Assembly (NCBI RefSeq): GCF_048403405.1
Contig: NZ_CP183129.1
DNA: 64,000 bases
Direction: 5' to 3' (one strand)
DNA from: Escherichia coli
GTDB lineage: Bacteria; Pseudomonadota; Gammaproteobacteria; Enterobacterales; Enterobacteriaceae
Part shown: piece by piece, positions 9,001-12,000 of the stretch
How the letters are laid out: the number at the start of each line of letters is the position of its first letter
How positions within the stretch are numbered: position 1 is the stretch's first letter
Made by a program: the position numbers

Positions 9001-12000
9001 AGCAACTTATAGAACAAACCGGCGATAACACTCTGACGTTAATGGATAAAGGTTATTACTCACTGGGACTGTTAAATGCCTGGAGCCTGGCGGGAGAACA
9101 CCGCCACTGGATGATACCTCTCAGAAAGGGAGCGCAATATGAAGAGATCAGAAAACTGGGTAAAGGCGATCATCTGGTGAAGCTGAAAACCAGCCCGCAG
9201 GCACGAAAAAAGTGGCCGGGACTGGGAAATGAAGTGACAGCCCGCCTGCTGACCGTGACGCGCAAAGGAAAAGTCTGCCATCTGCTGACGTCGATGACGG
9301 ACGCCATGCGCTTCCCCGGAGGAGAAATGGCGGAACTGTACAGTCATCGCTGGGAAATCGAACTGGGATACAGGGAGATAAAACAGACGATGCAACTGAG
9401 CAGGCTGACGCTGAGAAGTAAAAAACCGGAGCTTGTGGAGCAAGAGCTGTGGGGTGTCTTACTGGCTTATAATCTGGTGAGATATCAGATGATTAAAATG
9501 GCGGAACATCTGAAAGGTTACTGGCCGAATCAACTGAGTTTCTCAGAATCATGCGGAATGGTGATGAGAATGCTGATGACATTGCAGGGCGCTTCACCGG
9601 GACGTATACCGGAGCTGATGCGCGATCTTGCAAGTATGGGACAACTTGTGAAATTACCGACAAGAAGGGAAAGGGCCTTCCCGAGAGTGGTAAAGGAGAG
9701 GCCTGGAAATACCCCACAGCCCCGAAAAAGAGCCAGTCAGTTGCTTAACTGACTGGCATTACAGCTAGGCTGGGGGTTCCGGAAAGCTTTCAGCTTTGAG
9801 CCAGTTATTAAAACCCCTTTTGATTTGTTAAAACACCTTGCGGTCTGGCAACTGCAAGTGTCAAACAAGAAATCAAAAGGGGGTCCCAATGGGGAACGAA
9901 AAGAGCTTAGCGCACACCCGATGGAACGCGCGTGGTACAGGGAATGGACGCCGGGCTTTATCAAAAACTGAAACCGTTGGTCTGTGCGCTGCCGATGGCC
10001 CGCCAGCAAATCAACATCAATACATTAGATGTCACGCAAAGTGTGATTCTTGAGGCGCTGTTTGACCCGTGGTTAAGCCCTGTTCAGGCGCGGGCGTTAT
10101 TACAACAACGTCCGGCGAAGGGCTGGGAAGATGTCGATCAGTTTCTTGCACAGCCGCTACTTGCAGACGTCGATGAGCGTACTAAAAAACAGCTAAAAAC
10201 CGTCCTGAGCGTGGACAGCAATTACTTCTGGCTGCGTTCAGATATCACCGTGAATGAGATTGAACTGACGATGAATTCGTTAATTGTCCGCATGGGCCCA
10301 CAACACTTTTCTGTTCTCTGGCATCAGACAGGAGAAAGTGAGTGAGTTTCATGCTTGAGATTTTTTTCCCGCTTTGCGCCGCTGATCCCATCCGTTGGCA
10401 GCGCCATACACCCGACGTGGAGCACGGTATCTGGCCTGACGTTGCTGATGAATGTCTCCAGCAATGGCTGCAAACTGATGCGATTCGACTCTACATTCCC
10501 GGCGAATGGATCAGCGTCTGGCAGGTTGAACTGCCTGATGTGCCCCGCAAGCAGATACCGACGATTCTGCCCGCCTTGCTGGAAGAAGAGCTGAACCAGG
10601 ATATCGATGAACTGCATTTTGCCCCGTTGAAAATCGACCAGCAACTGGCAACCGTAGCTGTGATTCACCAGCAGCATATGCGCAACATTGCGCAGTGGTT
10701 GCAGGCAAACGGCATCACCCGCGCTACCGTCGCGCCGGACTGGATGTCCATTCCTTGTGGGTTTATGGCTGGCGATGCGCAACGGGTTATCTGCCGCATC
10801 GATGAATGCCGGGGATGGAGCGCCGGGCGGGCGCTGGCTCCGGTCATGTTCCGCGCACAGCTCAATGAGCAGAATTTACCGATTTCACTAACCGTGGTCG
10901 GCATTGCACCGGAAGAACTGTCTGCATGGGCTGGTGCGGACGCGAACGCCTGACCGTTACGGCTCTGCCCGCCATTACCACTTATGGCGAACCGGAAGGG
11001 AACCTGCTAACAGGGCCGTGGCAGCCTCGTGTCAGCTACCGAAAACAGTGGGCGCGCTGGCGGGTGATGATTCTGCCGATATTGCTGATTCTGGTTGCGC
11101 TGGTAGTGGAACGGGGCGTGACGTTATGGAGCGTCAGCGAACAGGTGGCGCAAAGCCGCACCCAGGCGGAGAAACAGTTCTTAACGCTATTCCTGGAGCA
11201 GAAGCGGATTGTGAATTTACGCTCTCAGATGACGATGGCGCTGAAAAAATATCGCCCACAGGCCGACGATACCTGGCTGCTCGCAGAATTGTCAGTGATC
11301 GCCAGTACCCTGAAATCAGCGTCACTTTCCGACATCGAAATGCGTGGTTTCACCTTTGATCAAAAACGCCAGACGCTTCACCTTCAGCTACGGGCTGCGA
11401 ACTTTGCCAGCTTCGACAAACTGCGTAGCGCACTGGCGGCAGATTATGTTGTGCAACAGGACGCGTTACAGAAAGAGGGTGATGCGGTTTCCGGCGGCGT
11501 AACGTTGCGGAGGAAATAACATGTTACGCGATAAATTTATTCACTATTTTCAGCAATGGCGTGAACGCCAGTTAAGCCGTGGCGAACACTGGCTGACACA
11601 ACACCTGGCGGGGCGTTCTCCGCGTGAAAAAGGCATGTTACTGGCAGCGGTAGTGTTCCTGTTTAGCGCCGGATATTACGTCCTCATCTGGCAGCCGTTG
11701 AGCGAACGGATAGAACAACAGGAGACGATGTTGCAGCAGCTGGTGGCGATGAACGCGCGACTGAAGAGCGCCGCGCCGAATATTATTGCGGCGCGAAAAT
11801 CCGGCACGACAACGCCAGCACAGGTATCGCGGGTCATCAGCGACAGCGCTTCCGCGCACTCTGTGGTCATCAAACGGATTGCCGAGCGTGGGGAGAATAT
11901 TCAGGTCTGGATAGAACCTGTGGTGTTTAATGACCTGCTGAACTGGTTAAAGGCGCTGGATGAAAAGTACGCGCTGCGGGTGGCACAAATTGATGTCAGT

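Follow-up and report, generated by a model that had tools for sequence, protein, structure and literature searches.

The T2SS-beta operon, which encodes the second type II secretion system (T2SS) of Escherichia coli, secretes the heat-labile enterotoxin (LT) in enterotoxigenic E. coli (ETEC) H10407 and also secretes SslE/YghJ. In K-12, the operon has undergone attrition by an internal gspC'-'gspL deletion (PMC2808357, PMC5382810), and for strain NCTC 86, Dunne et al. 2017 (PMC5382810) placed the locus late in a process of genetic attrition. The operon gene yghD lies at the border of group 2 capsule clusters, whose flanks were seemingly acquired along with them (Chaudhuri et al. 2010; PMC2808357). 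Here we analyzed a 64,000-nucleotide (nt) stretch of E. coli DNA (contig NZ_CP183129.1 of assembly GCF_048403405.1; referred to below as the window), in which the T2SS-beta gene gspL is a pseudogene, inactivated when one C dropped out of codon 201. The feature is an ordinary one and was already known: it is annotated by the Prokaryotic Genome Annotation Pipeline (PGAP), and the attrition of the locus has been published for NCTC 86.

The original prediction, made from the sequence of the window, was that gspL is covered by two overlapping open reading frames (ORFs) in different frames, with a frameshift near 10926-10953. Two ORFs are present on the plus strand, 10342-10953 (203 amino acids, frame 1) and 10926-11519 (197 amino acids, frame 3), and they overlap by 28 nt. 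The upstream ORF matches the Pfam family T2SSL and positions 7-210 of TIGR01709, the NCBIfam GspL equivalog model (392 positions, cut-off 65 bits). The downstream ORF matches the Pfam family GspL_C and positions 220-391 of TIGR01709. The ORF list and the family matches thus agree with the predicted split, and each ORF represents one half of a single T2SS-beta gspL gene.

For mapping of the lesion, the window was aligned with two intact alleles (those of LST200A and EC0026B) and with strain 2/0. The gspL alignment contains a single gap, at which GAC GCC GAA of the intact alleles is changed to GAC GC- GAA, one C being gone from a CC doublet. The surviving C at 10943 lies inside the predicted interval, and the comparison with intact gspL confirmed that a single base is missing. 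The shifted frame ends at the TGA at 10951-10953, and the second ORF opens with the foreign residues MGWCGR and continues with native sequence from E202. When the C was re-inserted, a 392-codon ORF was obtained, which scored 178 bits and matched positions 8-391 of the 392 in TIGR01709. The repaired protein showed 97% identity to the intact GspL of LST200A (382 of 393 aligned positions, with the stop codon counted). Because the ORF and family matches, the alignment with intact alleles and the identity of the repaired ORF all agree, the lesion is real and specific and does not reflect a chance ORF pattern.

In the gspL of the window, no uninterrupted frame runs through the cytoplasmic domain, the transmembrane (TM) helix and the periplasmic domain. 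GspL residues 39-230 align with chain 4pht_X, a solved structure of the cytoplasmic domain, and the break falls within this span. The last approximately 30 residues of the aligned span lie past the truncation of the first ORF, and the TM helix (residues 240-256) follows downstream of the break.

The gene order in the window is glcDEFGBA, IS4, 'gspK, frameshifted gspL and gspM (yghD), followed by the kps capsule locus. Strain RM14723 carries the insertion sequence (IS) IS200C at the identical site downstream of glcA and, behind it, a complete operon from sslE-pppA-gspS-beta-gspC to gspM. Relative to RM14723, 15,291 bp are missing between positions 9927 and 9928 of the window, namely the rest of IS200C, sslE, pppA, gspS-beta, gspC-J and the first ~560 nt of gspK. 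Twelve operon genes are lost in this way, leaving 'gspK, gspL and gspM. The gspK truncation, which had also been predicted, was corroborated: the ~418 nt of the 3' part are left, and PGAP labels this remnant "incomplete; missing N-terminus". The locus does not hold the set of secretin GspD, ATPase GspE, platform GspF/C and pseudopilins GspG-K by which a functional T2SS would be recognized.

The sequence upstream of the junction was resolved into two mobile elements. When IS4 was removed in silico, the query matched IS200C copies from query position 41 on, up to approximately codon 13 of tnpA. Excision of IS4 together with one repeat copy restored the palindrome CCCCCAGCTAGGCTGGGGG, and IS4 is inserted precisely in the left-end palindrome of IS200C (CCCCCAGC TAG GCTGGGGG). 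Since IS4 sits inside the IS200C structure, its insertion is the later of the two.

All coding content of gspL is kept, with residues 1-201 in the first ORF and 202-392 in the second, and programmed ribosomal frameshifting or translational reinitiation could be imagined to yield functional GspL, in one full-length chain or in two polypeptides that work together. The 28-nt overlap, an ATG at 10926 preceded at 11 nt by a weak GGAAG motif, and the intact downstream gspM are compatible with such recoding. However, a slippery heptamer is absent at GCGGACGCGAAC, no X XXY YYZ motif is found around 10935-10953, and the other gspL alleles in E. coli, approximately 4,000, lack the frameshift, showing that it is not a conserved recoding site. 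Programmed frameshifting was rejected on these two grounds, the missing slippery motif and the lack of conservation. Moreover, the break lies inside the span aligned to the solved cytoplasmic domain, missense changes have accrued downstream after the frameshift (see below), and the 15,291-bp deletion has taken GspD, E, F, C, G-J and most of K, leaving a system with nothing to assemble. Because every partner in the system but GspM is deleted, we consider a functional split gspL very unlikely.

It also seems very improbable to us that the remnant is active in another way, the C-terminal half of GspL (ORF 10926-11519) and GspM-beta being retained because they still act, perhaps through contacts with the other T2SS (alpha) of E. 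coli or through an effect on the neighboring region 3 of kps. Such a retained function, if true, would account for the observation that gspM is intact in all inspected genomes carrying the lesion.

The distribution of the lesion was analyzed in 5,426 complete E. coli genomes. Megablast with 10342-11519 detected the gene in 4,213 of them, and nearly all matches were 1179 nt long versus 1178 nt in the window. The matches covered 80% or more of the gene in 4,109 genomes, a count that takes in the lesion carriers and the K-12-type truncated alleles. As a lesion probe we used a 50-mer centered on the deletion, which an intact allele is unable to seed in megablast. This 50-mer was found at 100% identity in 171 genomes, once per genome and always on the chromosome. 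The approximately 4,000 other gspL-bearing genomes gave no match to it, limiting the frameshift to about 4% of the genomes with gspL; the intact 51-mer was present in 1,025 genomes, and others hold further single-nucleotide variants. Among the carriers are two separate CFT073 assemblies, NCTC 86, ATCC 25922 ("FDA strain Seattle 1946"), an O2:K2:H1 strain, some strains of sequence type (ST) 131 and an O102:H6 strain.

In every carrier inspected, PGAP calls gspL "frameshifted" and gspK "incomplete". Strain 4621, the nearest relative examined, differs from the window by two mismatches over positions 1-17500 and by none in gspL, and its "frameshifted" label stands at the exact coordinates of gspL in the window. 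The lesion is thus disabling in comparison with intact orthologs at the same locus and is reproducible across independent sequences, as is characteristic of a pseudogene. A 50-mer spanning the deletion junction (IS200C'/'gspK) was detected in 170 genomes and the full 8.1-kb arrangement from glcB to gspM in 167. Given these counts, the gspK truncation and the gspL frameshift nearly always occur together. This co-occurrence in about 170 complete genomes and the pseudogene annotations substantiate the further suggestion that the residual secretion genes are decaying.

The same distribution bears on the quality of the sequence. Single-base indels are the commonest assembly error, and the NCTC86 assembly has extra frameshifts in glcB and in a capsule gene; a base dropped at a short C run would mean that gspL is intact in the organism. 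A sequencing error at a homopolymer was what the original prediction had named as its possible refutation. But the run is a CC doublet and not a long homopolymer, the deletion recurs in 171 independent finished genomes obtained with differing technologies, including both CFT073 assemblies, and the lesion 50-mer is unmatched in the remaining gspL-bearing genomes. Since independent assemblies in such number share the deletion and its site is a mere doublet, an error is hardly conceivable. A recent, strain-specific frameshift, as opposed to ancient shared decay, is just as implausible; no observation in its favor was found, and it was ruled out by the 171-genome distribution, the lesion being common to ST73-type strains (CFT073, NCTC 86 from 1885, ATCC 25922 from 1946), some ST131 strains, the O102:H6 strain with its different capsule region 2 and the window's own lineage.

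The carriers differ from each other in the 3' half of gspL, where the substitutions are nested. P285L, V297M, R312W and A319V are all in the derived state in the window, CFT073, 2/0 and NCTC86. Strain ST131-4433 is derived for P285L, V297M and R312W and ancestral for A319V, and the O102:H6 strain is derived for V297M and ancestral for P285L, R312W and A319V. The latter three changes are all nonsynonymous and, judged from the alignments, appear to have built up stepwise after the frameshift. In the O102:H6 strain the states are interleaved along the gene (11194 ancestral, 11229 derived, 11274 and 11296 ancestral), a pattern that fits stepwise accumulation better than a single recombination breakpoint with an intact allele. 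The decay is older and more extensive than first noted: besides the 15.3-kb deletion, it takes in two IS elements and missense drift at a later stage. The carrier-specific gspL changes are five nonsynonymous to one synonymous, versus 38:50 between intact alleles (one-sided Fisher P = 0.07; six substitutions). This ratio is suggestive of relaxed selection on gspL in the carriers, and the nested P285L, R312W and A319V changes point the same way, although the numbers are small.

The remnant is linked to the capsule locus. Between the window and CFT073, approximately 130 mismatches were counted over 1918-8153 (the glc genes; about 2% divergence) versus six over 8154-34075, and from there on the two sequences are nearly identical up to 64000 save for one insertion. 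The contrast between the two sides of position 8153 places a recombination breakpoint at the boundary between glcA and IS200C-IS4 (~8153-8337). The glc genes of the window are ~2% divergent also from those of 2/0 and ST131-4433, and the glcA protein allele is that of the O102:H6 strain. By these alignments, the gspL pseudogene is part of a block of at least 56 kb, containing kps K2 and pheV-island genes, that the window has in common with ST73 strains. The same remnant is found in ST131-4433 with K2 genes and in the O102:H6 strain, where gspM, kpsMT and the region 2 genes are different. The remnant is inherited or transferred with the kps capsule block and is not particular to the strain of the window.

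Together, we regard it as almost certain that gspL underwent neutral pseudogenization within a nonfunctional T2SS-beta remnant ('gspK-gspL-gspM) between glcA and kps. The sequence supports the following events. IS200C inserted downstream of glcA, and a 15.3-kb deletion from approximately codon 13 of IS200C tnpA to approximately nt 560 of gspK removed sslE to gspJ and the 5' part of the operon. The native operon promoters were presumably lost with this deletion, and gspL is probably no longer expressed. IS4 inserted into the IS200C hairpin, making the 11-bp duplication. The 1-bp deletion arose in gspL as well; its place in this account implies no order with respect to the 15.3-kb deletion or the IS4 insertion. 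No intermediates that would order the frameshift and the 15.3-kb deletion were identified among the genomes, in which the two co-occur near-perfectly (171 versus 170). Later changes would comprise a 1-bp deletion in the IS4 transposase gene, along with missense substitutions that gathered step by step in the 3' half of gspL. Because the secretin, ATPase, platform and pseudopilins are gone, gspL would be under no selection, and its lesion would represent neutral decay. The remnant would persist by physical linkage to the capsule locus, moving with it by homologous recombination.

Several observations weigh against neutral decay in a shared remnant. The frameshift was counted in one genome more than the junction 50-mer, and among the carriers there may be a rare one that differs upstream. 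The nonsynonymous excess in gspL is based on six substitutions and is not significant. Finally, gspM is still an intact ORF with two nonsynonymous and seven synonymous differences, indicating that the decay of the remnant is uneven; the synonymous excess in gspM may mean that the divergence of its alleles is older than the inactivation.

Table 1. Coordinates of the gspL lesion and of the surrounding remnant in the window
Feature	Position	Strand	Evidence
gspL (T2SS-beta; K-12 name yghE) pseudogene, 1178 nt versus 1179 nt	10342-11519	+	Intact alleles, repaired-protein match, PGAP
5' ORF: GspL residues 1-201 (most of the cytoplasmic domain), Asn-Ala, stop	10342-10953	+	ORF list, family models
Site of the 1-bp deletion, codon 201 GCC to GC, surviving C = 10943	10942-10944	+	Intact-allele alignment, lesion 50-mer
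3' ORF: six out-of-frame residues, then GspL 202-392 (TM helix 240-256 and periplasmic domain)	10926-11519	+	
IS200C 5' remnant, left part, split off by IS4	8308-8336	+	IS4 removed in silico
IS4, 1425 bp, with 11-bp target duplications CAGCTAGGCTG at 8326-8336 and 9762-9772	8337-9761	+	
IS200C 5' remnant, right part: hairpin half, leader and first ~13 tnpA codons	9762-9927	+	Ends at junction 9927/9928
gspK, 3' remnant (last ~418 nt; 5' ~560 nt deleted)	9928-10345	+	BLAST versus intact operons, Pfam T2SSK
gspM (yghD), intact ORF, last gene of the remnant, adjoins kpsM	11521-12057	+	Pfam T2SSM residues 24-177; WP_000942819.1

The IS4 copy of the window is annotated by PGAP as "IS4 family transposase, frameshifted". 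Its transposase gene has a 1-bp deletion of its own near 9702, and the native C-terminus is encoded in another frame. In the O102:H6 carrier the extra C is present and an internal stop is found instead, and the NCTC86 copy is annotated as intact. The IS4 transposase decays independently among carriers.

Further observations were made in the capsule locus and the island. The insertion relative to CFT073 is 1.43 kb long (34075-35506), and in the corresponding interval strain 4621 has an intact IS110-family "RNA-guided transposase" annotated. In K2 region 2, at approximately 17500, the gene for a CDP-glycerol glycerophosphotransferase is split by IS1 in strain 4621; the window is gap-free versus CFT073 at this position, has no IS1 there and carries the gene in its CFT073 form. 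In the island downstream of kps, a gene for an AbiEii/AbiGii-family toxin (~31829-32763, minus strand) is labeled "frameshifted" by PGAP in CFT073 and 4621. The window presumably shares this toxin pseudogene, since the region is gap-free in the alignment with CFT073, from which these coordinates were converted.

The biological importance of the lesion is small and its practical value modest. The lineage of the window, like CFT073, NCTC 86 and ATCC 25922, is without T2SS-beta and consequently would not secrete SslE/YghJ through this system. The lesion and the nested missense series provide a small set of phylogenetic markers for the recombinational spread of the group 2 capsule locus. They might be used to trace the kps/pheV-island block between ST73, ST131 and O102:H6-type lineages. 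The locus is also a clean worked example of operon decay, with two IS insertions, a deletion, a frameshift and drift.

Compared with an intact T2SS-beta GspL (e.g., WP_001353919.1 of LST200A), the gspL of the window is located at the same locus between glcA and pheV/kps and has the same length. After repair it corresponds to the intact protein at the amino acid identity given above, with cytoplasmic domain, TM helix and periplasmic domain in the same order. In contrast to the intact gene, the window copy is one base short in codon 201, and its upstream partners are all gone. The yghE/yghD remnant of K-12 is similar in that the same operon has decayed independently, with the distal gspL-gspM left next to pheV. 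However, K-12 has kept sslE-pppA-yghG-gspC', and a deletion that took the first ~214 nt of gspL has brought the rest of this gene up against gspC, whereas in the window the 5' part of the operon is wholly gone and gspL is full length but frameshifted. The locus of NCTC 86 and CFT073 has the same gspL allele, the identical frameshift 50-mer and the same order IS4-'gspK-gspL-yghD. The window differs from these strains in the upstream glc genes, which represent a different allele, and shows no difference in gspL.
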